Sequence record: NZ_CP017043.1 | DNA from: a plasmid | DNA length: 64,000 nt | Strand: one strand, 5' to 3' | In this document: positions 6,701 to 63,111 of the stretch, one piece after another | How positions within the stretch are numbered: position 1 is the first letter of the stretch | How the letters are laid out: the number at the start of each line of letters is the position of its first letter | Notes under the pieces: model-generated | What the model was told of the DNA's origin: nothing | The model's database searches: none | The model's input: the letters and a program-made list of their open reading frames with translations, nothing else | Position numbers and translations under genes: made by a program

Positions 6701-8006
6701 CAGATTCCTCTAGGGCATTCACGGCAGCCTCTGATTTTTCCGCTGGATGAAGCTCCTGTGCTGCTGCGGGAGTGGCATACGTCGCAGCCAGCTCATAGTA
6801 GGCTCGCCCGATCAGAGCGTTCTGCGCCTCCGACGAAAGCGTCTCTGCAGACATGAGTGCACGCACGAAAGAAAGGTACATTTCACGGGATTGTACGCCC
6901 GTAATATGACCTTCATTTCGTGCAGTTTGAACGTCTTCGAAGAATTTGTTTGCAGATTCCTCCTGCAAAACATCAGGAATGCGGATCGAAAATTCGTCTA
7001 CACGAACGCTTCCTGGGGCTCCGGCATGATCTCCGCCGCCAGGCGTTCCCGCACCTCGGCGAGAACGCTGTTGTAGCTCTGAATCCACTGCATCACGTCG
7101 CGCTTCTTGAGGTCTTCCGTCACGCCGTCCCGCTTGCAGATCGCTGCTGTCAGCGCCTCCGACTGTTCGAACATCATGTCCTCGTAGTCTCTCAGATACT
7201 GATCCAGCGTCCCTGCGTCCAGCATCCGCTTCCACTCCTCCGGCTGGGTTCTGTGCAAATAATCCCGCCTCATGTCGCCCCAAATCCCATAGAGAGATTT
7301 CAGGATCACTTCTTCGGTCATTTGAATCTGCCTCCTTCTGCTTTGCAGCATTTGCTCTGTTCGCCGCAGTAATTGCATTGCCGAGCGAATCCAGAATCGT
7401 ACGCGAAACCTGATTGACCTCTCCCAGAACCACCGCAATATGGACATCTTGCGGAATAGAAAGCTCCGCCGGAAAGGTGTTTTGATTGGAAAGCCCCAGC
7501 CGCGACCGCACAACATATTCTACGCTCGCCGTTAAAAAATCAGCATGCTCCGAGTTCTGCGCCGCGGCAAGCTCTGCGGCCTTCGCTCGGATTGCCTCAT
7601 CCAGCGATCCGTCGCTCCCAAGCGTGCGCAGCACAAGTGCTTCGTGTGCAGGGGTAAACTGCCATGGAATCCCTTGTACCGCTGCATCCCCGTTTTGAAA
7701 AGCAATCGTATCCCGAATGTCATAGACATATCGAACGGTGTACTGATCATCGGGCTCCGATACCAGGAGCGGGATCGCGGCAGCACCATCACGCAATGTT
7801 GTTCGGAAAGAGTTTCGCCAAACATGATCCGGAGCAACGGCGCTTGCCTCAGCTGAGGCACGGTAATGCAGATTGATCTGCTCCATGATGGAATACTTAT
7901 GGAATTTGGCGATGGTATCAAGAAAAGCCCTATATTCTTGGGTACTATTGCTGACCTTAGTGAGATGGTCTCTTATTTCGAGCTGCAGCTGTTCTTTCTC
8001 TTCCAT
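795..8006 (-). CDS. giant fusion protein (2403 aa): N6-adenine DNA methyltransferase plus SNF2/DEAD-like helicase
   Basis: Methyltransferase motif I (ILDPSTGTGRFL) and motif IV (ISNVPFGNY, NPPF-like). Helicase motif I (LLAHVVGAGKTFEM), motif II (LYVDEAHFYKN), motif III (FATGTPLSNSMAELY) and motif VI (GSSDKLGVGTNIQDK). An RG/RD-rich low-complexity linker lies near aa 250-330. A GGAGG RBS precedes the ATG. Confidence 0.85.
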   Translation of the reverse strand: MEEKEQLQLEIRDHLTKVSNSTQEYRAFLDTIAKFHKYSIMEQINLHYRASAEASAVAPDHVWRNSFRTTLRDGAAAIPLLVSEPDDQYTVRYVYDIRDTIAFQNGDAAVQGIPWQFTPAHEALVLRTLGSDGSLDEAIRAKAAELAAAQNSEHADFLTASVEYVVRSRLGLSNQNTFPAELSIPQDVHIAVVLGEVNQVSRTILDSLGNAITAANRANAAKQKEADSNDRRSDPEISLWDLGRHEAGLFAQNPAGGVEADAGRRDAGSVSERLRGHDVRTVGGADSSDLQAGRRDGRPQEARRDAVDSELQQRSRRGAGTPGGGDHAGAPGSVRVDEFSIRIPDVLQEESANKFFEDVQTARNEGHITGVQSREMYLSFVRALMSAETLSSEAQNALIGRAYYELAATYATPAAAQELHPAEKSEAAVNALEESAPGTDSVEAEKPALSMNSSIKEWYLEKYSDDSSGNYLKDITFQELSDALPMGSALYEYAGIDSSDMRENLFVQLTELSGRSYDDILSSWINTAAPEPVLDRAETLTDEHEDTAAEADAEPAAAPVEADEAATDSETVRPVYEAEIIDPQTIDLPAAEDHAETDAPPIIDAEFAEVDLSTLDLSADMSTTAGKRAVFQRNLAAVQIANHLDRTGNLPNEGELEVLRAYSGFGGLSEAFDARNTAWHSEHQQAKEIMTEPEYMSARASTLDAFYTPPEIVQAIYSGLEQAGFQQGTILDPSTGTGRFLHHMPSSMKEQSRRVGVELDMLTAKVAQYAADGATILNKGFERIRFPQNSFDLAISNVPFGNYIITDSNYDRNYFVHDYFLKKMMDQVRPGGLVVAITSHGTMDKKDDSLRRELAQKGELIRAVRLPNQLFEAAGTNVLSDLLIFRKREKELAPDAELPAWVNADWQEVVHFDGSKRIEDGYHLNRYFIEHPSDILGTLSMRNMAFGIEPYVEGHSGKALADELSAVLASIPANSYQPLPDALPIPQEVEAPSHNQPFGLYEQNGTLVYYTPQGTIETVAFDKKTEQKILLAIQIRDQIWAMYDAELRDCSDTELTQYQATLNELYDEYMKKYGRIYEDNKLRQNFSKDASYPLLLSLEIVENGEFVGKSDIFSKRTIHAYTPPDHADTPGEALMISMQEKGRVDIPYMAKLTGLSAEEVVEDLEYTSIFEDMETNSYLPADEYLSGDVRARMENLERQIQKWQQEMQGIAEEQVFPVPKLFQRQRSCSNISTEKLTVWNGIRLLSNEQKKDLFLEENRGAFYYAMDHSSDELQIRYFDFLEKSAPEMTAALHDPLFYLECLRNNVMFNFEINEAHRIFSDTITALGIDAWQVTNGTVDTKTMGFLFKTFSDYESGAHPEVLEPERLASALQEHLQTYDEKIDAVKNGGGNPLVSYLHSEIHRANKNLAALEKVKPKDLTADEIKINLGATWIPTEDIEQFIKDVLEYRGTNRLVQYAASTGEWKVESKMDTHRSNKVKMYSTFGTKDANALAILEAALNHRQIRIRNDKGVVIEDASLLVAQKMDNLRDEFLKWVYRDEERKNRLVSYYNRHFNNIVPREFDGSRLSFPGMNPEIQLKKHQKDAVAHTLYGGNTLLAHVVGAGKTFEMQASAMESKRIGLCKKSLMIMPGHLTEQFGAEFLRLYPNAKILVATPKDFQKDKRAEFCAKITGQDWDAVIMSYEQFGKIPLSLERQEQFLKREIQELTDSLEAMRIAKEGRGFSVKQMEKQIKKLTKQYEAIMEAYQSRQDATITFEQLGIDRLYVDEAHFYKNLSFTTKIQGLNSAGAEKSTDLLAKIQYLNEVTNERGVVFATGTPLSNSMAELYTMQRYLRPSRLEKQGLYHFDAWASAFGQETTTMEIDPAGKGFRAKTRFARFNNIPELMSMFKEFADVKTADSLKLPVPEYEIEIVKAEASQLQKDIVDRLAERAKLIRQRKPIQLRADADKSTGKGMDNMLVVVKEGQSAALDPRIIDPSYPDNPDGKVNLCVNNVYKIYEETSDKQSTQVIFCDQSTPNPKASFTVYADIREKLVEKGVPKEQIAFIHDYDTPEKKEALFTRVRKGEVRVLLGSSDKLGVGTNIQDKLIASHDLDCPWKPSQIEQRFGRIVRRGNENEKVKVFRYVTDATFDSYMWQTNETKQRFISQVMTNRTPVREAEDVDEFTMTYAQLKAACTGNPLYKEQFELRNALQKLGAERAQYMEDQSKLNHRLNVGLPSFIKSAECYLKNVQKDIETIEQHQDDKTFVLQGVAYNTPKEIGEVLADCARAIYDGKLKETPRGTYCGMKISVVQNENHHIEVVFSGMTTNTFRIGATTPEENAARLENAPRTVFGRLPLAEAEVERLRQEVKDCEEGLGKPFPKEAEFQEKTLRYNEVNLLIEEQNKQEDQLVTKDLEEKQTEAASR

Positions 8007-8044: not shown

Positions 8045-8404
8045 GTAGCCCAAAAACACGGCTGCAAAATCCTATGATTTCACAGTGAGAAACATTTCTC
8101 AAGGTCATTATAGCATTCTGCTTTCGTAAGTGCAACTATATTTAGTTACACAAATAAATAAAAAGAAAGGAACAGTAATTTCTCAGGGTTATCATTTTCT
8201 TTTCGCTCCGCGTTGCTTCATTCGCTGCACGCTCATTCCCGCGCTGCTCCGCTCTCAAGAAAAACATAACCTTCTGCTCATTCACTGTTCCCAAGATTTA
8301 TGGCTTTCGCAGAATGCGTCATCCGTCACACGTTCCGGACAGCGCATACTGCTACCGCCTCCCCGCCCGCCTCCTCATGGGGCGTTGCCCCCTGCACCCC
8401 CGAT

Positions 8405-10690: not shown

Positions 10691-13141
10691 TTACGGAGCA
10701 GCAACTTCTTCCGCCGGATCGGAGGATTTATCCTCAATGATGTTGCAGCGGATCAGCCAGCGACGGTTGAACTCTTCAACGCCGTGTTCGCGAACGATCT
10801 CCTTCGCATCATTGACGCCTTTGGTATTGACGGCAACGTAGGCCAGCGAAACGGGACAAGCATCCAAGGCCAGCTGGAAGAGGCGCGAGCCATAAGGCGA
10901 CACATAGTAGTAGTCCATCTTCTTCGTTGCTGATGCGAGAATTTCAATCTGCCGACGGTTCAGCCCAAACAAGGCATAATTCTCGGCCGTTTTTTCTTCC
11001 AGAGCATCATTGTTGGGCAGAAATACGCGGCTGGGACAAGATTCGAGAACAGTGTGGAAAATGGGGCTGTTGACAATATCGGTGATGGATTGTGTCGCAA
11101 AGATAACGGAGGCATTTGCCTTACGGAGAACCTTGAGCCATTCGCGGATCTTCGCTGCAAACTGTTCGTTGTCAAAGAAGACCCAGCACTCATCCAAAAC
11201 AATGATGGTCGGCTCCCCTTTCAGGCTTTGCTCGATCCGATGGAAAATATACATGAGCGTTGTTCCCACAATCTGCGGCGTGCTCATGAGTTTCTCCATT
11301 TCGAACGTCTGCCAGGAGCCGAGCTGGAGGCTGTCTACATCCGAATCGAAAATACGTCCATAGGGACCGCCGGAGCAGAGCGGCGCCAGGGCTTTTTTCA
11401 GTTCTTCGGACTGGATCGCATTCACGAGGTTTGTCATGCGACGCAGACGCTTGTTCTCACCAACGTATGAAGTGGCGATGGCTTCCAGCGCATCCCAGAT
11501 CAGCTGCTTGCGCTCCGGCGTGATTTCAAGATTCTCCTGCCGCACATAGTCACAAATCCATTCAAGCGCCCACTGACGCTCTTTATCATCATCAATCTTT
11601 GCCAACGGCTGGAAGGAAAGTGCCCCCGTTTCCTCATTTCCGAGATCGAAAAAAGTTCCTCCGACGCCCCGTGTGAGGACATAGCTCGATGCCCCCTTAT
11701 CAAACACAAAGACACGGGCATCTTTATATTTGCGGAACGAGGACTCTACCATATTCAAGAAGACTGATTTTCCCGCTCCAGTGGGACCGACTACGAGCGT
11801 ATGCCCAACATCACCGACATGCAGCGTGAGCCGAAACGGCGTATTCCCAGAGGTCTGTGTATAAATAAGCGGCGGTCCCTGCAGGTGCTTATTGCGGGAG
11901 GCTCCTGCCCATATGGTAGAAAGCGGCATCATATGAATGAGATTGGCGCAAGATACCAAATGGCGTCGCACATTGCGGCCAACATTGCCGGGAAGAGAGC
12001 CCATCCAAGCATCTACACTGTTGAGATCTTCGACTTTCGCCTTAAAGCCGATGTTGTTGATTGTCTGAACAACGGCTTTTGCGCGCGTATCTGCTTCATC
12101 CGGCGAATCGCCTAAAACTACAATGCTGGACGTGTAATAGCCGTAAGAGGTAATATCCGACTCGATCAACGTCTCTGCAGCCTTTGCTTGCTGATATTTT
12201 GTAACGGCCGTCTGGTTGAGGTTACTGTTATCCTCCTGGCCACTTGCGAATTCACGCATCATGTCTGTCAGACCCTTGAATTTGGCTTTCCATTCCTTCT
12301 TTTTCTTGCCGACTTCATTCAAGGCATCCAGTTTCCCAAGACAATAGTAGCGCGAGACCCACCGATACGAGAAATTTTGCAGATTCAGGTGATCGAATAT
12401 CCCAAAGATGGTGTTATCCATATACCCGATGATCGTGATAACGCGCATATGTTTACTGCCCAGACGGGGTTCCAATCCGCCGGAAAGCGAAGAATCGCAA
12501 AGGAACTGATCCAGCAGCATCGGATGTTTCGGAAGCTTTAGTTTGCGCCGTTTCATGGATATTGTAGAGTAGAGATATGTGACCATCTCGTCTGCAGATA
12601 GAATTTCACAGGGAATTTGACATGCGAAAAACATATTATATACATCATTCACGACCGTGCGAAAGGCAACGAGATAGTCATCTTCCGTCAGCCCCTTCTG
12701 CTTCTTTCCCTCTACAACAAAGGAGCGCAGTCGCCCCTCATGGTCATTCGGAGGCATCCAGTAGAGCGTGGCGTAATAATCCGACTCAAAATGAGAATCC
12801 CCGCCGCTGAAAAACTCTTTGCGTTCATCGTCCATGATCTTGGTAATCGGATCGGGGAAATAGGAATCTGTCGGATAATCCGTCGAAGGAACGCGCTGAG
12901 ACTCAAAAAACATAACCCAGCCCGTATCCATGGACGTGAAAGCAGAATTCAGCTTTTGCGTAATGACGGAAAGCTGCTCCTTGATGGCCGAATCCAAATC
13001 CGGTCCCCGATAGCTGAATGTCGTCTGCATGGAGCCGTCTTTATTCAGCACAATGGTCGGTGATCCTGGAATAATGCGTGCCCACGGCAACGTATATTTC
13101 AGAGGCTCACTTTTTACCAAGAAACGATCCAAACGATACAT
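10691..13141 (-). CDS. virB4: type IV secretion ATPase VirB4/TrbE
   Basis: Walker A LVVGPTGAGKSVFL, Walker B IIVLDECW, and the VirB4 signature VIFATQSITDI. The 816-aa length matches TrbE/VirB4. Confidence 0.92.
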   Translation of the reverse strand: MYRLDRFLVKSEPLKYTLPWARIIPGSPTIVLNKDGSMQTTFSYRGPDLDSAIKEQLSVITQKLNSAFTSMDTGWVMFFESQRVPSTDYPTDSYFPDPITKIMDDERKEFFSGGDSHFESDYYATLYWMPPNDHEGRLRSFVVEGKKQKGLTEDDYLVAFRTVVNDVYNMFFACQIPCEILSADEMVTYLYSTISMKRRKLKLPKHPMLLDQFLCDSSLSGGLEPRLGSKHMRVITIIGYMDNTIFGIFDHLNLQNFSYRWVSRYYCLGKLDALNEVGKKKKEWKAKFKGLTDMMREFASGQEDNSNLNQTAVTKYQQAKAAETLIESDITSYGYYTSSIVVLGDSPDEADTRAKAVVQTINNIGFKAKVEDLNSVDAWMGSLPGNVGRNVRRHLVSCANLIHMMPLSTIWAGASRNKHLQGPPLIYTQTSGNTPFRLTLHVGDVGHTLVVGPTGAGKSVFLNMVESSFRKYKDARVFVFDKGASSYVLTRGVGGTFFDLGNEETGALSFQPLAKIDDDKERQWALEWICDYVRQENLEITPERKQLIWDALEAIATSYVGENKRLRRMTNLVNAIQSEELKKALAPLCSGGPYGRIFDSDVDSLQLGSWQTFEMEKLMSTPQIVGTTLMYIFHRIEQSLKGEPTIIVLDECWVFFDNEQFAAKIREWLKVLRKANASVIFATQSITDIVNSPIFHTVLESCPSRVFLPNNDALEEKTAENYALFGLNRRQIEILASATKKMDYYYVSPYGSRLFQLALDACPVSLAYVAVNTKGVNDAKEIVREHGVEEFNRRWLIRCNIIEDKSSDPAEEVAAP

Positions 13142-15154: not shown

Positions 15155-16114
15155 TCAAGTTACTTCATGATAAATGTACTTTTTCGAGGCCGGATCCCAG
15201 CGCTCAAGTTCGAGTATTTCCTGCACTTTTCGCGTCTTCCCAATGTATTTGAGATAGACGATATAGTGTACCGCCTGGGCGATCGTTGCCTGCTGCGGGT
15301 TCCGAGAGACACGCGCCGTCATGTTCTCAAGGCGAAGAAGCGTATCCACGGCAGAATTGCTGTGAACCGTTGAGCAGCCTCCCCCATGCCCCGTAGACCA
15401 GGCATCGAGGAGCGCCAACGCTTCACCAGAACGAACTTCTCCAACCACAATGCGATCCGGCGTCATACGCAGCACCTGCTTGAGGCAATCCTCCATGGAA
15501 AATGTTGGTGTTGCACGCATCTGCACGCAGTCAACGGCGCTGCATTGCAGCTCTGGGGTATCCTCAATCAGGATGACACGATCATCCAGCTTGGAGATCT
15601 CGGCCAAGATGGCATTGAGAAATGTTGTCTTGCCGGATTTTGTTCCCCCGGCCGCAATGATATTCTTCTTGTGATGGATAGCGTCGATCAGGAAATCATA
15701 TTGTTTTTCCGTCAGCGTCCCCTGTTCAACATAGTTCTCCAGCGAAAATATGGTCTCAGGGTGCTTCCGAATATTGAGGGTTGGTGCAGAAACGATATTG
15801 GGAAGATTCCCTTCAAAGCGGCATTTGGGGAAAAACGAGTTGGACGGAATGTCCGCATCAAGGGCAGGACGCTCCGATACGACCAGCTGCCCTGTCAGCG
15901 CAGCCACATTGAGAATGATCCCGCGCGTATCTTCCGGGGAAATATTTTTCCCCGTATAAGCTCTCCCCTTGCCAAGACTGTCCGTCCAGATCTTGCCGTC
16001 CGGATTCACATATACCTCGAAGACGTTTTTATCCTGCATAAACGGCATGATCGCTTTCATCGAGGTAATGAGCGCATCCATTGTGATGTTATACCGCTCA
16101 CTATTGCTGTTCAT
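15155..16114 (-). CDS. virB11: VirB11/TrbB family secretion ATPase
   Basis: Walker A AAGGTKSGKTTFLNA, Asp box RVILIEDTPEL, His-box region RIVVGEVRSGEA, and GHGGGCSTVHSNSA. Confidence 0.9.
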   Translation of the reverse strand: MNSNSERYNITMDALITSMKAIMPFMQDKNVFEVYVNPDGKIWTDSLGKGRAYTGKNISPEDTRGIILNVAALTGQLVVSERPALDADIPSNSFFPKCRFEGNLPNIVSAPTLNIRKHPETIFSLENYVEQGTLTEKQYDFLIDAIHHKKNIIAAGGTKSGKTTFLNAILAEISKLDDRVILIEDTPELQCSAVDCVQMRATPTFSMEDCLKQVLRMTPDRIVVGEVRSGEALALLDAWSTGHGGGCSTVHSNSAVDTLLRLENMTARVSRNPQQATIAQAVHYIVYLKYIGKTRKVQEILELERWDPASKKYIYHEVT

Positions 16115-19014
16115 TCTTCGTTACGCTCCTTGTTCATTGTCCCTAAAAAGGCATCCAAGCCTAACAGTGGGCTGCTGCCGTTGGTCGTATCCCCCGCTTC
16201 TTCGGTGTCTGCATCGAAAAGATCAAGATCATCGTCCATATCCAGCTCCTCCGGCGCAGCCTCGTCAAAGTCCTCCTGATCGCCAAAAAGGAAATTGGAA
16301 AGCTGTATGTCGCTGTTCTCCCCTTCTGAGGCCGCAGCTTCCTCTGCGTCCGCATTGACGGCAAGAATGGAGGCATCCAGATCAATGAGATCTGATACGG
16401 CATCTGCGGGAGACGGCGTTTCTTCATGCACCTGCAGGATGTTCATACGCCTTTTTGCCTTGCTCTCCATCTCTTCCTGGATGGCCGATTGATGAGTGTC
16501 TTCAACCGCTGCCTGATACCGACGATTTTCGGGGTCTACCTCTTGCGGACTTTCTGTCCGTGTCCGATGATCGGCGGCTGCTTCACTTTCGATATTTTCG
16601 GGCTGGCCGACAGGTTCTTCTTGCCCTGCTGCTGCAATCCCTGCGCTGGAGATCTCTTGCTCATTCAGCTCCTCCTCGGGGTGTTCCCCTGTAATGCGGA
16701 AAATCACATCCTTTTCGTATTGCGCCTTCTCCGCCTCGAGTTTTTGGACATAATCCTTATACGACATTCCGGCTTTGTTCGCCTGATCCTCAAGAACCCG
16801 CTTCCGATCATCCTCTTTCGCGGCCTGATCGGCTGCATGGACATCGAACAGCTCCTTGAAATTCGTGACGCGTGTCACGGTATCACTCACCGCCGGACAT
16901 TTTATCTGTGTCCGTTTGATGAGGAACGGATACTCATAATAACGCAGCTTGTCTCCAAAGATGGCTTTATGCCCGGCCACAAAGACGAGTTCTTTCTCTG
17001 AACTCATCTGGGCGACTTCATCCGGCGTCAAGAGTTCTCGGCCGGTCTGCGACGTAGAGTTTGAGCCCTTGAAAAAGCCGCCGCCCCCGTCGCTGTGCGA
17101 GATGGTCGATATTGTGCGTTTGCCAAGCGTCTTTGAAATTGCCTCGGCCGTTGCACCGCCGGAGTCGATATTAGGGGTAAAATAGATATGCACATGACAG
17201 TTTGAGCCGATGGAGTTGTCTTTGGTGTACTCCTTGTTGAGCTGGTTGACATCCTGGCAGACGATGCAGACTTTGATTCCATAGCCCGCACAGATGGCAA
17301 GCGCAAGCTCTATGCACTTCATATTGCCTAACTGCGGAAACTCATCCAACATGAGCAGAAGGCGCTGCTTCTTTGGCGCGGGTTTATTGGGATCCGTGTC
17401 AAATTTCATGTCCCGTATGAGCTTCGAACAGATCATCTGGATGAAGAGACGTGCAATCGGCTTGACGGCCGCAATATCTTTGACCTCCATGCAGAGATAC
17501 AGCGATACTTCCTGCTGCGGATCGAGCAGGTCGCGAATCGCAAAATCCGATACGCTTGTGTTGTTTTGCACGACCGGATCCTGATAGATCGCCAAAGAGG
17601 TTTGTGCGGTCTGCATAATCGAGGCCGTAGTCTGCTGCGCACCATTCAGAATGTTGGCCGCGCATTCGGCCACCTTCGGATGGGACAACAGCAGATGATA
17701 TGGCGCATTGGTTGGCAGCCCCGTCTGATCTACTGCCTCCCACTGGATTTTCTCCCCTTTTTTGATCTTCTGCTGCAGCGCAACGCGGATCTCATCAATG
17801 GATTTTACCTTGGTATCGAGTGCCTGGGCAAAGGGGCGAAAATCCTTGATATATTCCCCGTAGATTTCCTTGAGCGGATTCTTTTTGCGTTTCACAATCC
17901 CATTTTCATCAAGAATGGGCTTCCCGTCGGCGCCGATCTCTTCCACTTCCAGGAATTCATCCGGGCTGATATGCGGATAATCACGCATATCCGTAAAAAG
18001 CTCTTCCGTTGACTTATCCGGACTGGAGAGAAATGACATAATGTCCGTCGGACACGGGAGCGGCCGCTCCTCTCTATCATGTTTATAAAGCAAGTGCAGG
18101 ATAACGCCGTTCAGGAGAGCTGCAGCCGAGTTCGGCCAAAACTCATCGCCGCCCTTTGATTCTCCATCCGGGCGCACCATGACCGAAACGATAGACTGAA
18201 CGTCCGATAACTCCTCGCTCGTACGATAATTGACCTCGGCCAGTGGGTTCCACCGTGCTGCGGATCCATCCGTGCAGAGCGGCTGAAACTTGAGTACCTT
18301 CTGCTTCAGGACGTTCTTCCGATAGCCGCTGGTCAGGCTCCAGAGTTCGCCCTTCGGATCGAAAAAGAAGATACTGTGCTTCCAGATCAATCCCGTGGGG
18401 ATGATCGTGCAGACGCCCTTACCGCTGCGGGTCGGAGCCATGAGAAGCATATGCTCCACGCCGTCATGCAGCATGAGCTTATGGGTATATGGATTGATAC
18501 CGACAACAACGCCGGAATCCTTGATGATCTTCTCCTTTTTGGTGTAAGGGATCAATCCAAGGAATCTCTTCTTTGTTTTCCTATACTCGTATACGCCCCC
18601 GTTTTTCGAGACGTAAGCGCCGAGATCCGATTTTTCGATGTCCTTGCTCGACGCAAAAGAAGCGCTGCCATGTGATGTCTGCACCAAAAACGCCTTTTTG
18701 AGGAAATACATGCAGACCATGGAGAGCAGCAAAACCAGCTGGGCAAATGACGAGTACGCATCGAGAATATCCGGAATTGCCTTACTGATATGCTCATCAT
18801 ATGACCACACCAGGTAATCATACGGAGGATAAATTTTACTGCCGCCGAGCTCTATATAACTTCCGAGCAAGGGATGATAGTCACACTCCTCTGCTACCGC
18901 CTGTGTCGCATACCATTGCGTTATCAGCATCAAAACAGCGAAAATGAGCACCGTATAAAGAAACGCCTTCTTTTGTGCTGTACGATGAATCTCTTCATCT
19001 ATCATCTCAATCAC
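16111..19014 (-). CDS. virD4: type IV coupling protein VirD4/TraG family
   Basis: N-terminal TMs, Walker A LLMAPTRSGKGV, Walker B LLLMLDEFPQLG. The long acidic C-terminal tail ends in DMDDDLDLFDADTEE. Confidence 0.9.
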   Translation of the reverse strand: MIEMIDEEIHRTAQKKAFLYTVLIFAVLMLITQWYATQAVAEECDYHPLLGSYIELGGSKIYPPYDYLVWSYDEHISKAIPDILDAYSSFAQLVLLLSMVCMYFLKKAFLVQTSHGSASFASSKDIEKSDLGAYVSKNGGVYEYRKTKKRFLGLIPYTKKEKIIKDSGVVVGINPYTHKLMLHDGVEHMLLMAPTRSGKGVCTIIPTGLIWKHSIFFFDPKGELWSLTSGYRKNVLKQKVLKFQPLCTDGSAARWNPLAEVNYRTSEELSDVQSIVSVMVRPDGESKGGDEFWPNSAAALLNGVILHLLYKHDREERPLPCPTDIMSFLSSPDKSTEELFTDMRDYPHISPDEFLEVEEIGADGKPILDENGIVKRKKNPLKEIYGEYIKDFRPFAQALDTKVKSIDEIRVALQQKIKKGEKIQWEAVDQTGLPTNAPYHLLLSHPKVAECAANILNGAQQTTASIMQTAQTSLAIYQDPVVQNNTSVSDFAIRDLLDPQQEVSLYLCMEVKDIAAVKPIARLFIQMICSKLIRDMKFDTDPNKPAPKKQRLLLMLDEFPQLGNMKCIELALAICAGYGIKVCIVCQDVNQLNKEYTKDNSIGSNCHVHIYFTPNIDSGGATAEAISKTLGKRTISTISHSDGGGGFFKGSNSTSQTGRELLTPDEVAQMSSEKELVFVAGHKAIFGDKLRYYEYPFLIKRTQIKCPAVSDTVTRVTNFKELFDVHAADQAAKEDDRKRVLEDQANKAGMSYKDYVQKLEAEKAQYEKDVIFRITGEHPEEELNEQEISSAGIAAAGQEEPVGQPENIESEAAADHRTRTESPQEVDPENRRYQAAVEDTHQSAIQEEMESKAKRRMNILQVHEETPSPADAVSDLIDLDASILAVNADAEEAAASEGENSDIQLSNFLFGDQEDFDEAAPEELDMDDDLDLFDADTEEAGDTTNGSSPLLGLDAFLGTMNKERNEE

Positions 19015-33045: not shown

Positions 33046-34656
33046 TTAGATACTATGACCATGAATGATCTCACTTCGCTCAGGAGCTTCATACATGCGC
33101 GAGAGAAAATAATCGTTCTCCTGATATTGAACACCAGCCACATCAACACTTCGGGTATCCATAATAATCGAGTATTTGTTCTTTTTACCGAGGATAGAAA
33201 TCACCTGCATATCTGTCTTGCATCCATAAAATTTACAAGTCTGTAACAGCTCATCAAACAAAACAGCCTTCATCCCGCATAAAGAAATATAATTCAGCCC
33301 AGGGTATTCAAATATATTTAGGCGACCTAAAGACGTACACTCATCCATTAGAATCAAGCATCTGTATCTCCCTTTCATTGGCTCTCCCTTATATCCAAAT
33401 ATCCAGAGCATTTCCAAGAACACACGAAAAATTTGGGATGGTTGGCAAGAATTACCCGGTGGAGTCACCAGATACAAAGATACGGGCTGCGTGTGATTCA
33501 TAAGATCTTTTATACAGAAATCACTTCTTTCCGTATGGTGTCTAAGCACTGGATCAAGATAATCTTTGAGTGCTGCATTTATGATGGACAGAATATAACA
33601 CGCCTGATTATTCGGTATTGACACGATTCCGTGAAGTTTATGGTCAATAATTTTTTGTACCTTTTCCGGTTCCTCTAAAGATATATATGGATACTCCAAG
33701 GGTGTATCATATATTTTCCAATCCAAAGGCATCCAGGCATAAACAGGAGCTCCGTCTTTATCGACCATTCCAACCGTATGATCCTGTATATATTGAGCAA
33801 CATCATAAAGAGATAGAGACTTTGGATGCCGATCTTGATCAGCGTGATATGTATTTTTGAGATGCAGGATGATTTTCGTAAGAACATCGGCAACTTCTTC
33901 TACAACGTCATCACATACCATCATTTTCCCCATCCGGATCAAGGCCGACGAAAGCGTCTTTGCTACAAATAGCTTGTCAGGGCTGTCCATCCGTATCTCG
34001 TCAAGAGGATTCCAGCACGCAGATGTATCATCTGTTGCTGTCGGCTCGAATTTGATTATCGTGTTCCCGAGCCGCTTTCGATAACCTGCGGTGACTTCCC
34101 AGTATTCGCCTTTAATATCATGCACGACTACACTAGATTTCCAACCGTCAAGGAGCGTCGGGATGATAAATCGATCGCTTCGTCTGTGATTCGACTCACC
34201 CTCAATCAATATATGATTACTGGAATTATCTCGTAAATATAGGGGCATAGGGTTCATGTGGCGTTCGACAAACCAATTATATGCTGCTGTCCTTTTATCC
34301 GCAGGAAGTATCTTAGTTAATGGGGGCACTACGCCACTAAGAATTGTGTCATACTGGCCAATTACAACACCTTCATCAGAGATCAGTCCCATCTTGGCAT
34401 ATTTTTTATAACTTCCCTGCTTATTCCCGTCCTCATATTTTTTACAGAAATGTATAAGTATCGCAGTCAATAAACTAAACGCAACAAATGGTGTAATTAG
34501 ACCGATCAAGGCAACATCTTCTGATACTGTAAAATTAAGAATCAGCACTACAATGCTGCAAAACGTCAATCCCAAGACGCTGAGCTTAACGGTAAACACA
34601 GCCGTTATAAGCATGAGAAAAAAGCAGAAAACAGTCCATAAATCAATATGTATCAT
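33046..34656 (-). CDS. VirD4/TraG-family coupling-protein paralog with a degenerate Walker A
   Basis: N-terminal TMs. HILIEGESNHRRSDRFIIPTLLDGWKSSVVVHDIKGEYWEVTAGYRKRLGNTIIKFEPTATDDTSACWNPLDEIR aligns to the 967-aa T4CP (HMLLMAPTRSGKGVCTIIPTGL...DPKGELWSLTSGYRKN...LKFQPLCTDGSAARWNPLAEVN). The P-loop lysine and glycines are replaced by RRSD. Walker B LILMDECTSLG is retained. Confidence 0.75.
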   Translation of the reverse strand: MIHIDLWTVFCFFLMLITAVFTVKLSVLGLTFCSIVVLILNFTVSEDVALIGLITPFVAFSLLTAILIHFCKKYEDGNKQGSYKKYAKMGLISDEGVVIGQYDTILSGVVPPLTKILPADKRTAAYNWFVERHMNPMPLYLRDNSSNHILIEGESNHRRSDRFIIPTLLDGWKSSVVVHDIKGEYWEVTAGYRKRLGNTIIKFEPTATDDTSACWNPLDEIRMDSPDKLFVAKTLSSALIRMGKMMVCDDVVEEVADVLTKIILHLKNTYHADQDRHPKSLSLYDVAQYIQDHTVGMVDKDGAPVYAWMPLDWKIYDTPLEYPYISLEEPEKVQKIIDHKLHGIVSIPNNQACYILSIINAALKDYLDPVLRHHTERSDFCIKDLMNHTQPVSLYLVTPPGNSCQPSQIFRVFLEMLWIFGYKGEPMKGRYRCLILMDECTSLGRLNIFEYPGLNYISLCGMKAVLFDELLQTCKFYGCKTDMQVISILGKKNKYSIIMDTRSVDVAGVQYQENDYFLSRMYEAPERSEIIHGHSI

Positions 34657-57358: not shown

Positions 57359-59311
57359 TCATGTACCCGGCAAGAACTTGAAGCCATTGCTTGTGCAAAA
57401 TTGCTTGATAATCAGCTGCGACAGCTTATCTCCCATGTATACGAACAGGATGCAGATCATGGCCAGTTTCAGCAGTATAACGATCTGCAGGGTGTGCTGC
57501 GTCTTCTGGATGGAATCCGAGGCTGTAACGACTTTTTTCCAATATCCCCCGCTGCGGTCGCCGTTCCATGCTCCGGCAGCCTTTTCCCAGCTCCCGTTTG
57601 CATCAAACAGTTCGAGCAGATGATGCTTCGCAACGGCTGTCTGTACGTTCTCAGGCCAAGGAGTAGTCGCTGGAGGGAATTTGTCTTCCCATGATCCGCT
57701 GTACGGTTTGGACTGATAACCGGGACTTGCCCACGCCTCTGAATCGTCGCCCCAGGGCATAGGCGGCGGCTCGAAGCCGGCGCGCTGACACCATACATCC
57801 CAGTATTCATAACTGATCTGATATGCGCCGTATCCCCATCCATCCTGCGAGGGTGTCTGAAACGGATGCTCCTGCCCGCCGGTCTCTACGCGGCGAATTG
57901 CCTCGACAACCATATCAATGCCATCTCGGCCGCCGAAGTTGCCGTTGGGATTGCCGACAGCCTCCTGAATCGGAACCGTCTTTACGCGGATCAGATCATC
58001 TACCACCATTGTTGTCATAACGGACTGCAGCATGGCCGCAAAGAAACAGAAGAAAAAGAGCTTTATGGATGCGCTGAAAATCCCGTTCATTCCATTTTCT
58101 GCATAGCGCCGCGACCATTTAACACCGGCAAACATAAAGTTGGCAAAACTGAACACGGCAATGAGGTAGAACTCGAGATATGCCATGATAATCTCAAGGG
58201 CAAAGAGGACGAACGATCCAAAAATGATGATGAGGAAAATGACTGCAACAGCACCGGAGGCAATCTTGGCCAGCCAGTCCAGTCCTCCTGCATCGGTTTC
58301 ATTCAGCACGGTGAATATCGGCTCGATGATCTGCGCGCCCTTTGTAACAAGTGACGTTGGATCAACAAGCATCTGTTTTGTCTGCGCTATATCCAGACCG
58401 CTGGTTGACGCTCCGAAGCTGACAAACAGATCTCTCGTTCCGTTGATAATGAAGCCGCCCCAAGCCGTAATGACGTAGAAAAGCATCACATACACCAATA
58501 TCTTCAGCGTCAGCAGCTTGAAAATGCTGAAATTCGGATCTTGCCCCTTTTCGCGGTCTACCGCAATCAAAAGATACGTCATGGCAAGGTCTATTGTCAT
58601 CAGGATTGCGATTGTGTATTTGATGATTCCTTTGAGAAGATCAACTGCTTTCGTACAGGCCAAAGCGACTGTATCAATCGCTTTTTTAACCGGATCCATA
58701 AAGGCAAAGGCCGCATCCCAGACCATGCCCTTACTCTTTCGGCTCATATCAAGTCCTTCTACCGTCGCATTTGCAGGGAGCCACGGAGCATAGGGGTGAT
58801 AAAGCGCAGGACTAATAGGAGAATCGTTGATGCGCACCTCAAAATGCAAATGGGATCCGCGTGATACAGCTGTTTCTTCCGGTCCAGAATAACCAATCAA
58901 CTGCCCACGTCGTACGTGATTTTCTACACTCTGCATAATTGCACGGGCTGGAAGAAAGCCGTCATTCGGATCTAAATCACCATACCATGTTTCAAACTTA
59001 CTTCCATCTGGCGCGGTATGTTCGATAACCACAAATCCATCAAAAGAAGAGTCATTTTTTGCAAGAATGACCGTTCCGTCCGCAACAGCATAAATGGGTT
59101 CATGTACTTCAGTACCGATGTCTATACCGTTATGCGGCTGTACTCTACCAGTAATAGGGTGCGTACGGCGCGGGTTGAAAGGACTTGACACGATGATTTC
59201 ATGTCCGTGCAGCGGCGCATCCATCATCACAAGACTAGAAGCGCATACCAGCGACGCATATCCTTGTAAAAACAACACAATCAATAACAGGAAAAAGTAT
59301 TTTGATCTCAT
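57359..59311 (-). CDS. cell-wall hydrolase fusion: M23 peptidase, polytopic membrane domain and a lytic-transglycosylase-like domain
   Basis: Start MRSKYFFLLLIVLFLQGYASLVCA. M23 motifs (HNGIDIG...SRGSHLHFEV). About six TM helices in the middle (aa 250-450). C-terminal ETGGQEHPF...GWGYGAYQISYEYW resembles the SLT/VirB1 catalytic Glu plus GLMQI-type box. Confidence 0.65.
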   Translation of the reverse strand: MRSKYFFLLLIVLFLQGYASLVCASSLVMMDAPLHGHEIIVSSPFNPRRTHPITGRVQPHNGIDIGTEVHEPIYAVADGTVILAKNDSSFDGFVVIEHTAPDGSKFETWYGDLDPNDGFLPARAIMQSVENHVRRGQLIGYSGPEETAVSRGSHLHFEVRINDSPISPALYHPYAPWLPANATVEGLDMSRKSKGMVWDAAFAFMDPVKKAIDTVALACTKAVDLLKGIIKYTIAILMTIDLAMTYLLIAVDREKGQDPNFSIFKLLTLKILVYVMLFYVITAWGGFIINGTRDLFVSFGASTSGLDIAQTKQMLVDPTSLVTKGAQIIEPIFTVLNETDAGGLDWLAKIASGAVAVIFLIIIFGSFVLFALEIIMAYLEFYLIAVFSFANFMFAGVKWSRRYAENGMNGIFSASIKLFFFCFFAAMLQSVMTTMVVDDLIRVKTVPIQEAVGNPNGNFGGRDGIDMVVEAIRRVETGGQEHPFQTPSQDGWGYGAYQISYEYWDVWCQRAGFEPPPMPWGDDSEAWASPGYQSKPYSGSWEDKFPPATTPWPENVQTAVAKHHLLELFDANGSWEKAAGAWNGDRSGGYWKKVVTASDSIQKTQHTLQIVILLKLAMICILFVYMGDKLSQLIIKQFCTSNGFKFLPGT

Positions 59312-59459
59312 GCCCGCAATCCTCTCGTAATTATATGCTCCTATCCTACCGCGAAATATCTGCTTAAAATTCCTATCATTTGTCACTCAGAAATGGCAAC
59401 TAAATATAGTTGCTTAATTGAAAAAAATCCTGTAAAATAAAAAAGGATGGAGGTGGGCG

Positions 59460-59822
59460 ATGAAGAATATTCTACGGTACAAGGAATACATCGGATCTGT
59501 GGAGATCTCCGAGGCAGAGGGCTTCCTCTATGGCAGGGTTCTCGGCATACAGGAGAAAATCGACTATCAGGCAGTCAGAGCCGATGAGCTGGTCAAACAT
59601 TTTCATCAAGCGGTTGATATGTACCTTGACCGATGCAGAAAAGACGGCGTTTCTCCGGAAATCCCCTACAAGGGCAGCTTCAATGTTCGCATTGCCCCTG
59701 CGCTGCATCGCAGACTTGCCGTCCATGCAGTGCAAAATGGCGTAAACCTCAACCGCCTGGTCGAGACGATCCTCGCCTCCTACGAGCCTCTCTATGCTCC
59801 GGAAAAGGACGTGTTATCATGA
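59460..59822 (+). CDS. hicB: HicB-family antitoxin-like protein
   Basis: YKEYIGSVEISEAEGFLYGRVLGIQEKIDYQA...LVKHFHQAVDMYLDRCRKDGVSPEIPYKGSFNVRIAPALHRRLAVHAVQNGVNLNRLV shows the HicB fold followed by an RHH-like DNA-binding tail. Confidence 0.7.
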   Translation: MKNILRYKEYIGSVEISEAEGFLYGRVLGIQEKIDYQAVRADELVKHFHQAVDMYLDRCRKDGVSPEIPYKGSFNVRIAPALHRRLAVHAVQNGVNLNRLVETILASYEPLYAPEKDVLS

Positions 59823-60973
59823 AGATTACGCTGATGAACAAAAACACGCCCCTCATGTCGCTTGACATCGACATCAAGACCAGCTACGTCAAAGAGATTT
59901 TGAAAATCCACAACGCAGAGCCCATGCCGATCTCCGTATACAGCGACGATGAGACAACGCTCGGCGAGAATTTTACGCAGTGGTGGAACGGCCGCAGCAT
60001 TCCCGCCTCCAGGCGTCAGCTGCGCGAGCGGCTGCAGGAGCTGCATGTGTCGGCGATGGCAGAGATCATCAACAAATCCTTCGGTCTCAGTCTCTCCGAT
60101 CAGTATTGGATCAAGCCGCTCGGAACGGACATTGCGTGGAAGGACATCAACTTCTTTACAAACGAGTTCTCCACGGACATGGGCGAGTTTCTCATTGACA
60201 ACAGGTTCAACGGGGAGCTTGATATGCACTCGCCCGACAACACCTCCGACGGCCTGATCCAGAAGAAATGGATCATCGAGGACGGAATCCGCTGCCTGAT
60301 GAAGACAGGGACTCCCCCGTTTGTCCAGGAACCGTTCAACGAAGTGATCGGCTCGCGCATCCTTGCCTGTATGTCTGTCCCCTATGCAGCATATACACTG
60401 GCAGAGGACGATCAGAGGTTTTACAGCAAGTGCAGCAACTTCATTGACGAAGATCATGAGTATGTCTCTGCATACTATCTCTGCAAGTCCATGCCCCCCA
60501 AGGAGGGCATGGAAAAGGAAGAGCAGCTCAGGCAAGCGATGGAGCACCATCAGATACGCGACGGCGAAGTCTTTATTCAGCAAATGCTCTGCCTTGACTT
60601 CATCATTATGAATGTGGACAGGCATTGGGGAAACTTCGGCTTCATCCGCAACGTCAATACGCTGAAGGTTGAACGTCCTGCGCCGATCTTCGACAACGGG
60701 AACAGCCTCTGGTATGATATGGCGCATATTCCGGAGCACTTCGATCAGGCGAAGACCTTTCGGAAGAAGCATAGAACGCAGATCAAACTCGTAAGGGACT
60801 TCTCCGGCATCGACTTTGCTGCGCTGGAGAGTGTTCCGGCACAGGCGCAGGAGATTTTGCGGGCGAATCCGAATCTGCCGGGCGACCGCGCAGAAAAAAT
60901 CGCGCAGCGCATACAGGAACGCATCCAGATGCTTGCGCGGATCAGGGAACAAAAGAGGGATTCTTTTGTATGA
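59819..60973 (+). CDS. HipA-like Ser/Thr kinase (385 aa)
   Basis: Start MKITLMNKNTP, overlapping the hicB stop (ATGA). CLDFIIMNVDRHWGNFGFIRNVNTLKVERPAPIFDNGNSLWYD is the HipA catalytic-loop motif. Confidence 0.7.
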   Translation: MKITLMNKNTPLMSLDIDIKTSYVKEILKIHNAEPMPISVYSDDETTLGENFTQWWNGRSIPASRRQLRERLQELHVSAMAEIINKSFGLSLSDQYWIKPLGTDIAWKDINFFTNEFSTDMGEFLIDNRFNGELDMHSPDNTSDGLIQKKWIIEDGIRCLMKTGTPPFVQEPFNEVIGSRILACMSVPYAAYTLAEDDQRFYSKCSNFIDEDHEYVSAYYLCKSMPPKEGMEKEEQLRQAMEHHQIRDGEVFIQQMLCLDFIIMNVDRHWGNFGFIRNVNTLKVERPAPIFDNGNSLWYDMAHIPEHFDQAKTFRKKHRTQIKLVRDFSGIDFAALESVPAQAQEILRANPNLPGDRAEKIAQRIQERIQMLARIREQKRDSFV

Positions 60974-60990
60974 TAAGGAGAGTGATTCAT

Positions 60991-61374
60991 GTGGGAATCC
61001 TATCTTCACTAAACACTTGGATTGACGAAGGTGCAAAGGAGCAAGAAAGAATTCGTATTGCAAGGCGTGAAGAAAAAAAGAAAAAAATCGACGAATTTGT
61101 CCATAAGGAGTATACTGGAAAAGTTTTTGGAACAAAGCCCTTAATGGACTTGTTTGGAACACACAACCTTGATGAAGCTTTCAAAGGGAACGCCCCCTTG
61201 CTTACAATGATGTTGGAGGAGATATATCTAAATCAAAAACAAGTATCACGTATGCAAGAATTAGAAGGACGGTATGCGGAGCTCAAAGAACGCTATGATG
61301 AACTGAAAAAAGAGTATGATAAACAAAACGAGCTGATTGCAGAAATCGCCAAAAAATCTGCGCTAACAAGATAA
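60991..61374 (+). CDS. coiled-coil protein (about 128 aa), third gene of the HicB/HipA-like operon
   Basis: AAGGAGAG RBS, then an in-frame GTG at 60991 (alternative ATG at 60970 overlapping the kinase stop). Lys/Glu-rich coiled coil. Confidence 0.5.
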   Translation: MGILSSLNTWIDEGAKEQERIRIARREEKKKKIDEFVHKEYTGKVFGTKPLMDLFGTHNLDEAFKGNAPLLTMMLEEIYLNQKQVSRMQELEGRYAELKERYDELKKEYDKQNELIAEIAKKSALTR

Positions 61375-61376
61375 AT

Positions 61377-61422
61377 AAGGCTTCTCGATCCTATATGCGG
61401 ATTGAGAAGCCTTATTTTATTT
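61377..61422. terminator. bidirectional rho-independent terminator
   Basis: aaggcttctcgatcc-tatatgc-ggattgagaagcctt followed by attttatttg, between convergent genes. Confidence 0.6.
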
Positions 61423-63111
61423 GATGGGTGAGTATTTTGAAATATCTCTTGCCACATCCTTTGCAACAGAGGCTACATTATGTGCTCCTGTTGCAATGCC
61501 TTTACCTATATTTTGTGCGCCTGTTTTAATCCCCATCGCGCCATTCATCATCATGCCAGTAGCGGTTGCCCCACCTGCGCCACCAAATATTTTTTGGGCA
61601 CTTTCTTTTCCAGCATTAACAGCTCGTCCGACAAAATTCCCCTCACTTGCATATTTAGAAAGCCCTTGACCTGCTGCACTCATCATCATGCCAGCTCCAC
61701 TATTCATTGCACTTGCGCCAGCACGAGCCAGTCCGGCAATTCCGCCGCCGCCTTGAGCATATCCCCCTGCTGCAGCCTGTGCCATGTTTCCTGCAACGCT
61801 CGCGCCGCCGGATGCGACGGCTGCACCTGCGGCAACTGCGGTCGATGTCACATTCTTCGCGGTCTGTGTCATGCTTGCACTGGAGAGCGATGGAGAACCG
61901 CTGAGAAGCCCCTGCACGAGCTCCGGGATCTTTTTGATGAGAAGGTAGAGCAGGAAGCTCACCACCACCATCTGGATCAGCACCGGCATATTGCCGATGA
62001 TGCCCCCGGAGCTTTCATCCGTGGCGATCTTGGCAAACTCCTCACAGTAATCTGTGAGGATCTTGCTGGTCATGGCCGCCAGGAATGAAATGACCGATAC
62101 TTTGACGGCCAGATTAAACATCGCACCCAGCGCCCGTTCAAAGAGAAATTTTGTCTGTGGAAGCGCAACAAAGGGGATCAGCGGAATAGTAATCATGGCC
62201 ATCGTAAAAAACTCGATCTTCGCCATGAGAAGCTCAAGACCTGCAAGAAGGAGCAGGATGAACATGACAACCAAACAGAGTATGGTCACAAGGGAAGAAA
62301 TCGGTGACCAGATGGAAAAAGCCTTTTCTGCTGCGCCATAACCGAGCGAGAACATCGCCACGGCGTTTTCGATGAGAGAGTTGCCGCGCACGCCATCGGT
62401 CGAAGTATATCCCCCAGCATGATAACCGAGGGATTCAAACCCGTTGCACAGACTGCCCATGATGTCGATTCCGTGACCGTACCAGTTCAGGATAAGGAAG
62501 AGGTAGAGCCCCGTCTCGAAGAGCGTCTGAACAAGGAATTTCATCTTGTCGCCGCTGATGAGATCCAGCGAGATTTTGATGGATGCTGAGATCGCAGTCA
62601 GGACGATGAGCAGCTTGCCCGCAATCGGGATGATAGCGACAGCCCCGGATTTCGTATAATCAATATATGTCCTAGTGAAGGGCTGCAGGAAATCATACCA
62701 TTTACTGTTTTTGTCCGCATCGACGTGCATTTTATACTCGAATGCCGCCTGATCGCCGCCGGCGCCAACGTATCCGCCGTATGCGGCCATGAGGACGGTG
62801 CCGAAGTTCAGCGCAAGGCCGATGCCGAGGATAATATTCCACGTTGTCTTATTCGCAGATTCGACATTGAAGACGATCATGAGACCTGCGAGGGCGATCA
62901 TGATGGTTGAAATAATCCGCGCGACCACAAACATTCCGTTGGTGATGGTCGTGAGATTGTTCTGAAAGGAACCGTCTCCCGCTTTCAGCCCTATATCTGA
63001 GCTGAACGCTGCATATGCCGTAGAACTATCAGCAAACAGGAAAATGGCGAGCATGAGCGCGGCACCGATCGGCAGATAGGAATATAACGCTCCAATCCTT
63101 TGATTCATCAT
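61417..63111 (-). CDS. virB6: TrbL/VirB6-like polytopic T4SS membrane protein
   Basis: Signal/TM N-terminus and at least six TM helices. The Gly/Ala/Met-rich C-terminal tail (AVAAGAAVASGGASVAGNMAQAAAGGYAQGGGG...) is typical of TrbL. Confidence 0.75.
   Translation of the reverse strand: MMNQRIGALYSYLPIGAALMLAIFLFADSSTAYAAFSSDIGLKAGDGSFQNNLTTITNGMFVVARIISTIMIALAGLMIVFNVESANKTTWNIILGIGLALNFGTVLMAAYGGYVGAGGDQAAFEYKMHVDADKNSKWYDFLQPFTRTYIDYTKSGAVAIIPIAGKLLIVLTAISASIKISLDLISGDKMKFLVQTLFETGLYLFLILNWYGHGIDIMGSLCNGFESLGYHAGGYTSTDGVRGNSLIENAVAMFSLGYGAAEKAFSIWSPISSLVTILCLVVMFILLLLAGLELLMAKIEFFTMAMITIPLIPFVALPQTKFLFERALGAMFNLAVKVSVISFLAAMTSKILTDYCEEFAKIATDESSGGIIGNMPVLIQMVVVSFLLYLLIKKIPELVQGLLSGSPSLSSASMTQTAKNVTSTAVAAGAAVASGGASVAGNMAQAAAGGYAQGGGGIAGLARAGASAMNSGAGMMMSAAGQGLSKYASEGNFVGRAVNAGKESAQKIFGGAGGATATGMMMNGAMGIKTGAQNIGKGIATGAHNVASVAKDVARDISKYSPIK

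Follow-up and report, generated by a model that had tools for sequence, protein, structure and literature searches.

The hicB-kinase-ORF3 operon

We analysed a stretch of 64,000 nucleotides of plasmid DNA (sequence record NZ_CP017043.1; the whole stretch is hereafter the window), and in it an operon of three genes, which encode a HicB-family protein, a kinase of the HipA/CtkA superfamily and a small protein from the third open reading frame (ORF), ORF3 (Table 1). The operon lies antisense within the type IV secretion system (T4SS) cluster of a conjugative element, between two VirB6/TrbL genes. The stop codon of hicB (TGA, 59820-59822) overlaps the start codon of the kinase gene (ATG, 59819-59821), and the ATGA overlap that an earlier note had described from the letters of this DNA is thus read directly in the sequence. 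The strong terminator with which the same note had closed the unit is present as well; it is the sole terminator-like site detected in 59200-61600, and, being flanked by an A tract, it probably also ends the convergent TrbL/VirB6 gene that stops at 61417.

The three ORFs are real genes and not chance ORFs. The same order is found in over 20 independent metagenome contigs, in which the identity of the kinase goes down to 78%, and all three are under purifying selection (ratio of nonsynonymous to synonymous substitution rates, dN/dS, 0.04-0.22). A 4-nt overlap between hicB and the kinase gene, (A/G)TGA, is found in every kinase-bearing locus whose junction was read, across HicB identities of 75-100% and kinase identities of 78-100%, and in the remaining kinase-bearing loci that were fetched the gene calls likewise give a 4-nt overlap. 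At the junctions read, hicB and the kinase gene are translationally coupled. The same region holds two further mechanical ORFs, one of 456 aa antisense to the kinase (59792-61162, minus strand) and one of 446 aa in an upstream-extended frame (59633-60973, plus strand), both of which we regard as by-products of the kinase frame rather than as genes.

Table 1. Positions of the operon, its regulatory sites and other genes in the window (aa, amino acids; RHH, ribbon-helix-helix)
Feature	Position	Strand	Remarks
hicB-like gene	59460-59822	+	120 aa; operon gene 1
Kinase gene	59819-60973	+	384 aa; operon gene 2
ORF3	60991-61374	+	127 aa; GTG start (MGILSSL...); operon gene 3
Intrinsic terminator	61373-61417	+	19-pair stem, 7-nt loop, T tract
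Putative sigma-70-type promoter	59410-59438	+	-35 TTGCTT 59410-59415, 17-nt spacer, -10 TAAAAT 59433-59438
Candidate RHH operator	59396-59413		perfect palindrome GCAACT-AAATAT-AGTTGC, GCAACTAAATATAGTTGC
Second operator copy	8132-8149	-	GTAACTAAATATAGTTGC; 17/18 positions identical
Giant N6-methylase/SNF2/Helicase_C gene	795-8006	-	2403 aa; Pfam
VirD4/TraG-type coupling-protein gene	16111-19014	-	967 aa
VirD4/TraG-type coupling-protein gene	33046-34656	-	536 aa
TrbL/VirB6-like gene, left of operon	57359-59386	-	
TrbL/VirB6-like gene, right of operon	61417-63111	-	

A HicB-family protein without HicA

By Pfam, PHROG and fold, the product of the first gene is a true HicB-family protein. It matches the Pfam family PF05534 (HicB) with 64.1 bits (cut-off 21), and its residues 1-106 match PHROG 9151, 'HicB-like antitoxin' (E = 2.7e-32). 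The protein consists of an N-terminal domain resembling HicB and double-stranded RNA-binding domains (residues ~1-62), a C-terminal RHH domain (~70-108) and a tail (114-120) in which the predicted local distance difference test score (pLDDT) is below 50. In the AlphaFold2 model (pLDDT 84.7), a beta-rich N-domain and a long helix are followed by two RHH helices. A profile of 28 HicB sequences matches RHH proteins (the SvtR-like 2kel, CopG, omega and Mnt), and fold searches return the solved HicAB complexes 4p78, 6g26 and 5yrz. These matches bear out the HicB fold with an RHH tail proposed in the earlier note, and they identify the upstream gene as hicB, and not as a HipB-type gene with an XRE helix-turn-helix (HTH).

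Among the hallmarks of HicB proteins, the N-terminal HicB fold, of the dsRBD or partial RNase H-like kind, and the C-terminal DNA-binding domain are present and the adjacent HicA gene is absent. No HicA gene occurs at the locus, where the neighbours of hicB are a divergent M23/TrbL gene, the kinase gene and ORF3; the 148-bp gap upstream of hicB contains neither a gene call nor an ORF, and the operon has no HipB/XRE-HTH gene. Every HicB homologue of at least 69% identity lies in the slot that the two TrbL genes flank. A homologue of 53% identity is an orphan among unrelated genes, and orphan homologues with neither HicA nor the kinase are found elsewhere (loci L097-100).

A kinase with intact catalytic motifs and a HipA fold

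The HipA-like kinase of the earlier note stands in its essentials: the product of the second gene belongs to the HipA superfamily and carries the catalytic loop NVDRHWGNFGF intact at residues 265-275, its length being 384 aa and not 385. The other motifs are a P-loop-like segment, SPDNTSDGLIQKKW (138-151), and the Mg-binding APIFDNGNSL (288-297), and the motifs align with DRH..N and FD.G of CtkA. Across 74 homologues, S138, P139, G145, K149, K162, D267, R268, H269, N272, F273, G274, D292 and G294 are invariant, and dN/dS of the kinase gene is 0.07-0.17 (0.07-0.09 where dS exceeds 1). From these residues we predict a catalytically intact, active enzyme.

The HipA_C profile, with which the earlier note would have verified the assignment, gives 21.9 bits, under the gathering score of 30.5, which formally touches the refuting condition of that note, and NCBIfam gives no match; many relatives of the kinase at 40-94% identity have a precomputed match to PF07804. 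In sequence searches of the PDB the closest solved protein is CtkA and not HipA (E = 1.3e-5 when the kinase alone was the query and 3.5e-15 for a family profile, compared with 2e-3 for HipT of Legionella, HipT(Lp)). The HipA fold is recognised by structure. When the AlphaFold2 model (pLDDT 91, predicted template-modelling score 0.91) was compared with solved structures by Foldseek, CtkA was matched over the core kinase only (E = 2.6e-9), full-length Shewanella oneidensis HipA was matched by entry 4pu5 (E = 1.2e-8, query-based template-modelling score TMq 0.62 over 456 columns), Escherichia coli HipA entries followed with E = 1e-6 to 1e-4, and HipT was also matched. The protein consists of a HipA-like N-domain (~1-140) and a core kinase; the match to full-length HipA indicates that it has the complete two-domain HipA architecture. 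Of the characters of a HipA kinase, it thus shows the two-domain fold and the catalytic, Mg-binding and P-loop residues, and it lacks a sufficient HipA_C score and an adjacent HipB.

Detectable relatives of the kinase number more than 6,800. They come from Bacillota, Bacteroidota, spirochaetes and one archaeal metagenome-assembled genome, are annotated as 'HipA domain-containing protein' or 'excisionase' and share the motifs WWxxRxIPASR, GLSLSDQYW, SPDNTSDG, DRHxxNFG and APIFDxGxSL. Of the PADLOC models, the kinase matches the defence candidate PDC-M03A (53 bits); HicB and ORF3 have no PADLOC match save one to LmuB at chance level. In the papers searched we found no description of PDC-M03, of its other components or of DUF1828, a family that is met below. 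The C-terminal tail of the kinase is rich in Arg and Lys (RIQERIQMLARIREQKR), and the C-terminus varies among alleles: those of L086 and L092 stop earlier and that of L104 ends in TPTR.

ORF3 and its orphan family

Mechanically, ORF3 can be read from an ATG (60970-61374, 134 aa) that overlaps the kinase stop codon. Homologues and gene calls, however, set a conserved start at GTG 60991, preceded at a distance of 8 nt by a ribosome-binding site (RBS), AAGGAGAG (60975-60982); with this start, ORF3 abuts the kinase gene across a 17-nt gap and there is no overlap. Of the 128-aa frame that the earlier note had placed in overlap with the kinase stop or next to it, the close abutment is retained, and the length becomes 127 aa.

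The protein has a charged N-terminal half and a conserved, heptad-like C-terminal segment (ELEGRYAELKERYDELK). No significant match was found in Pfam, NCBIfam, PADLOC, PHROGs or the PDB; searches return only coiled-coil noise or the protein's own orphan family, which comprises 42 clusters and, in an exhaustive profile search, 36 representatives among 1.8 billion proteins. All family members for which genomic context was fetched lie in the same element lineage. By this distribution, we consider ORF3 to be a backbone gene of the element, from an orphan family. A HipS-like role, which the earlier note had suggested for the third gene, was rejected: HipS, HipA_N and Couple_hipA have no match in ORF3 at E <= 1, the family is an orphan without relatives in Pfam, NCBIfam or the PDB, and the kinase already holds the N-domain whose place HipS takes in HipBST, which leaves such a role without a basis.

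The G+C content of the ORF3 region (61000-61399) is 0.385, against about 0.5 around it. The alleles look mosaic, the C-terminal third of the ORF3 of the window being like the L111 type and the N-terminal part not, and identities of ORF3 between loci do not follow those of HicB or the kinase: between the window and L086, ORF3 is ~50% identical while the adjacent hicB is 97.5% identical. Such divergence between similar elements suggests cassette-like recombination.

A candidate operator at two promoters

The right arm of the candidate operator overlaps the -35 element of the putative hicB promoter, and the palindrome lies 19 nt ahead of the -10 element; the promoter was assigned by eye and was not listed by a consensus scan. 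The RBS of hicB, GGAGG, lies ~7 nt ahead of the ATG. In six loci the -10 element is kept as TAAAAT, TATAAT or TACAAT. The operator core upstream of hicB is kept in elements with the kinase, without it and with HicB alone, the aligned part of HicB being only ~54-56% identical, and it is absent from unrelated loci.

The second copy of the operator lies upstream of the methylase/helicase gene and, as at hicB, 19 nt ahead of a -10 element (TATAAT, 8112-8107). The core pattern AACTNWATAYAGTTG occurs at these two sites in the window, compared with 0.02 sites expected by chance. Because of the second operator, HicB looks like an element-wide repressor, and the pair of sites is the strongest hint that HicB may bind these operators and repress at the level of the element, with a candidate small regulon.

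Presence, loss and reassortment of the kinase

The slot between the TrbL genes occurs in four states. HicB, the kinase and ORF3 are found together in the window and in L001-4, L086, L092-96, L104-109, L121-128 and L130; in a few cases the contig ends within the operon. In three loci the kinase carries independent internal deletions beside intact hicB and ORF3: L143 (3001-3324) and L144 (the same) are without residues ~58-332 and carry a frameshift, and L133 (944-1600) is without residues ~98-213. An intact kinase beside a broken hicB was found in no locus. HicB is followed directly by ORF3, across a 14-nt spacer, in L101-103, in L110-115 and in L118, an outgroup with a HicB of 54% identity. 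In the more distant element of L116 (3380-3505, 3860-3920) and L117, HicB stands alone with its own terminator and the operator core, and is ~54% identical over residues 1-111. The cluster P0053 (236 aa, 99% identical to the kinase of the window over 49% of the length) may be a further truncation. L132 and L135, which had appeared to be divergent (~50%) kinase-bearing alleles, were rejected as frameshift-ridden contigs of near-identical sequence.

L104 (with the kinase) and L101 (without) are closely related, HicB being 78% and ORF3 82% identical, and the two loci differ essentially by the kinase. One RBS-bearing junction, ACGATAAGGAGAGTGATT, follows the kinase in the loci that have it and HicB in the loci that lack it. 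In a neighbour-joining tree of HicB, the kinase-bearing group of L104 falls with the kinase-minus clade, and the outgroups are without the kinase. The junction sequences would fit an insertion as well as a deletion between short repeats, CAAAG(G)A; what was observed directly is only repeated loss by deletion. The alleles of HicB and the kinase also reassort, since L086 combines a HicB that is 97.5% identical to that of the window with a kinase that is 97% identical to that of L092, the HicB of L092 being 75% identical to that of the window.

Partners of other kinases of the family

To set the pairing against the wider family, we used a sample of 80 GTDB loci with kinase homologues at 35-42% identity, each with a neighbourhood of ~4 kb. 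A relative of HicB or ORF3 occurred near none of the 80 kinases. The 57 upstream neighbours on the same strand included no recurrent Pfam family (HicB 0/57, HTH_3 1/57); a crude local search with hidden Markov models, superseded by this Pfam scan, had placed XRE-HTH neighbours at 3/80 loci. About ten of the 80 kinases (~1/8) have an N-terminal extension of ~90 aa, and most members of the kinase family lie outside T4SS clusters. As HicB is absent from the distant kinases, and as all HicB homologues of at least 69% identity occupy one slot, the HicB-kinase pairing is, by these comparisons, confined to one conjugative-element lineage. The co-occurrence of HicB and HipA-like kinases for which the earlier note had proposed a search thus exists in more than 20 contigs of that lineage, and it does not extend to the distant loci.

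The nearest kinase relatives without HicB (46-54% identity) have a DUF1828 gene upstream, an upstream gene for a protein of 71-79 aa without a family assignment, or no linked gene. The linked genes, at kinases of 52-54% identity, are separated from the kinase by 28 nt (DUF1828) and 32 nt (71-79 aa). Upstream genes of such kinases, at L087 3571-3972 and L005 4753-4968, are possible alternative partners or antitoxins. A kinship of DUF1828 and the 71-aa partner with HicB was rejected, as hhalign with the HicB profile gave no similarity. The variety of upstream partners among the nearest relatives is the partner-swapping pattern typical of toxins of toxin-antitoxin (TA) systems.

The element and its other genes

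By its gene content the window is a conjugative element, of oral Selenomonas-like Negativicutes to judge from the sources of its relatives. In addition to the two coupling-protein genes (Table 1), genes for a VirB4-like ATPase, topoisomerase III, a MobA/MobL relaxase and a RepB-primase-like protein are recognised by Pfam. Close homologues of HicB and ORF3 are named 'uncultured Selenomonas sp.' by their sources, many of the contigs that carry them come from human metagenome projects, several of these labelled oral, and certain of the contigs exceed 200 kb. A megablast search of the locus against PLSDB plasmids gave no match, and tblastn with the kinase against plasmids and phages found relatives at no more than 38% identity, in unrelated contexts.

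The left TrbL gene encodes an N-terminal M23 peptidase fusion and a long C-terminal extension; its true start is likely ATG 59311 (MRSKYFF...) rather than GTG 59386. Giant proteins that combine an N6-methylase with an SNF2 helicase are typical among the anti-restriction or establishment proteins of conjugative elements. A similar gene, of 2772 aa, is in partial view at the Mitsuokella locus L005. In L001, a Fic-domain gene (10786-11155) lies ~4.6 kb past ORF3 in the same T4SS cluster, outside the stretch that corresponds to the window.

Discussion

The interpretation that we favour, tentatively and at a little under an even chance, is a type II TA-like module in which a resident HicB repressor has been co-opted to control a growth-arresting kinase. 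HicB repression, the toxicity of the kinase, its direct neutralisation and the biological role are inferred here. Most likely, the RHH protein HicB would repress its own promoter through the palindrome that overlaps the -35 element, and it would probably repress, with the same operator, the second promoter ahead of the methylase/helicase gene. The kinase, a translationally coupled but optional cargo, would phosphorylate a host protein and thereby arrest growth. HicB would keep the kinase harmless by holding its transcription low, and probably also by binding it through the HicB-fold N-domain or the tail, so that the kinase would act when HicB is missing, either after loss of the element or briefly on entry into a naive recipient. 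In favour of this model, the order of hicB and the kinase gene and their overlap are typical of antitoxin-toxin pairs, a genuine HicB without HicA stands beside an intact and strongly constrained HipA-fold kinase, the conserved operator overlaps the -35 element, the nearest relatives of the kinase swap partners, the HicB fold has a known role in binding toxins, and decay was seen in the kinase and never in hicB. The HipA homologues that have been characterised are toxins that arrest growth and are borne on mobile elements, according to the phylogeny of Hip kinases published in 2021 (PMC8262856).

Several of our results weigh against the TA-like model. HicB and its palindromic operator are, to judge from the loci compared, the fixed backbone of the slot, usually accompanied by ORF3, and the kinase is optional. 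Since HicB and the operator are present without the kinase, hicB is selected for something other than neutralisation of the kinase, and since HicB is kept without the kinase, the asymmetric decay does not discriminate between the interpretations. The reassortment of HicB and kinase alleles argues against tight co-evolution. The kinase scores under the HipA_C threshold, the wider family is mostly solitary, and the distant kinases have neither HicB nor ORF3 relatives nearby nor any recurrent upstream family. What the earlier note had called a mix-and-match of HicB and HipA therefore holds as a coupled pair without HicA or HipB, in which HicB is not dedicated to the kinase, as the same slot occurs without it. 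The plasmid addiction module of the same note is here a conjecture; the operon lies antisense in a T4SS cluster, and the conjugative element around it may be an integrative and conjugative element or a plasmid.

The main rival, a substantial but doubtful possibility, is that HicB is a resident transcriptional repressor only, which does not bind the kinase, and that the kinase is regulated cargo, its activity being kept down, as in solitary HipA homologues, by autophosphorylation and by a low expression under autoregulation. The kinase could then serve in abortive or anti-phage defence, or in a burst of host manipulation as the element enters a recipient. Repressors of the Kor/Ard type shut off early genes after transfer, and a HicB that only represses would be comparable to them. 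Such a role is consistent with the invariance of HicB and the operator as a unit, with or without the kinase and ORF3, with the second operator in identical promoter geometry ahead of the 2403-aa methylase/helicase gene, with the orphan HicB homologues that have neither HicA nor kinase, with the free recombination of HicB and kinase alleles, and with a kinase family that is overwhelmingly solitary and in which the kinase of the window matches the candidate PDC-M03A. Against it stands the exact start/stop overlap in every kinase-bearing locus read; the small upstream partners of the nearest kinase relatives do not look like DNA-binding proteins, suggesting control at the protein level; and in the solved HicAB complexes 4p78, 6g26 and 5yrz it is the HicB-fold N-domain that binds the toxin. 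A quite unlikely arrangement is that HicB and ORF3 are the cognate module, ORF3 being a partner or toxin under HicB and the kinase an unrelated insertion. Wherever ORF3 occurs, HicB does accompany it, whether the kinase is there or not, and the same junction ACGATAAGGAGAGTGATT follows HicB in kinase-minus and the kinase in kinase-plus loci, but HicB also occurs without ORF3 (L116/117), ORF3 resembles no toxin or known family, and the coupling of the kinase gene to hicB would be left unexplained.

The resemblance to CtkA raises another explanation, which we regard as improbable, namely that the kinase is a T4SS substrate delivered to recipient bacteria or to host cells, with HicB as a regulator in the donor, a source of immunity, or both. 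CtkA of Helicobacter pylori, the closest solved relative of the kinase, is variably encoded on the integrative and conjugative element (ICE) tfs3, requires the Tfs3 T4SS and alternates with a fic gene in one slot (PMC5536186). The kinase studied here is likewise a variable gene in a T4SS cluster, with the Fic gene ~4.6 kb away in L001, and its C-terminal tail is rich in Arg and Lys. The identity to CtkA is ~19%, however, there is an extra HipA-type N-domain, most members of the kinase family are not in T4SS clusters, and the C-terminus is not conserved between alleles. In a broader version, which is a long shot, the kinase would be an inter-cellular T4SS effector with a function analogous to that of CtkA, or would act in a burst on entry, and HicB would be at once an element-wide repressor of early genes and the immunity of the donor; if true, this would bring toxin kinases of the HipA type, antitoxins of the HicB type and conjugative establishment together in a single circuit.

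A HicB/RHH partner would add a gene organisation to those of the Hip kinases and a further example of the co-option of antitoxins. The series of loci with the kinase, with a deleted kinase, with HicB and ORF3, and with HicB only, all under one operator, offers a test of whether a resident repressor becomes an antitoxin when a toxin is slotted in behind it. If the kinase is ordinary autoregulated cargo, the finding is routine. The analysis further draws attention to a large family of CtkA-like kinases in gut and oral Bacillota and Bacteroidota, most of them solitary and as yet uncharacterised, and the parallel with CtkA and the tfs3 ICE raises the question of a role of such kinases in conjugative transfer.

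Comparison with known systems

Partner shuffling is well known among TA systems. Our literature search found no paper on a HicB or RHH protein coupled with a HipA-like kinase. The 2021 phylogeny distinguishes 10 gene organisations; the partners named in its abstract are HipB, HipS, HipS-HIRAN, gamma-delta-resolvase-like and Stl-like proteins, and HicB, RHH and CtkA are mentioned nowhere in the paper (PMC8262856). TASmania has, in its main text, HTH_3.HipA_C pairs but no HicB.HipA_C pair.

The operon resembles HipBA in that a small upstream DNA-binding protein is followed by an overlapping gene for a full-length two-domain HipA-fold kinase, in the catalytic logic (D-x-H-x-x-N, D-x-G) and in the palindromic operator at the promoter. 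It differs from HipBA in that the partner is a HicB-fold and RHH protein and not an XRE-HTH HipB, that the kinase falls short of the gathering score of HipA_C and, when aligned by Foldseek, shares only ~10-12% identity with HipA, that the partner pre-exists the kinase and persists without it, and that the operon has a third, unrelated gene. With HipBST it shares three genes including a kinase of the Hip superfamily, but the order here is regulator, kinase and small protein, compared with HipB, HipS and HipT; moreover, the kinase keeps its N-domain, whereas HipT lacks N-subdomain 1, which is given by HipS, and ORF3 is unrelated to HipS. As in the HicAB systems of Yersinia pestis, Burkholderia pseudomallei and Streptococcus pneumoniae, the product of the first gene combines the N-domain fold of HicB with an RHH domain; in contrast to them there is no HicA, and HicB is encoded by the first gene and not the second, with the kinase or ORF3 next.

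The closest solved protein in both sequence and structure is CtkA (JHP0940, H. pylori tfs3 ICE), which is also a variable gene of a conjugative element that encodes a T4SS. CtkA has 325 aa and aligns only to the core (~19% identity), whereas the kinase here adds a HipA-type N-domain of ~140 aa, and the descriptions of CtkA that we found include no upstream gene of the HicB type. Finally, among the solitary HipA homologues, which include YjjJ/HipH and the family annotated 'HipA domain-containing protein / excisionase', the kinase of the window is a member of the latter, and within that family the coupling to HicB is peculiar to the present lineage of elements.

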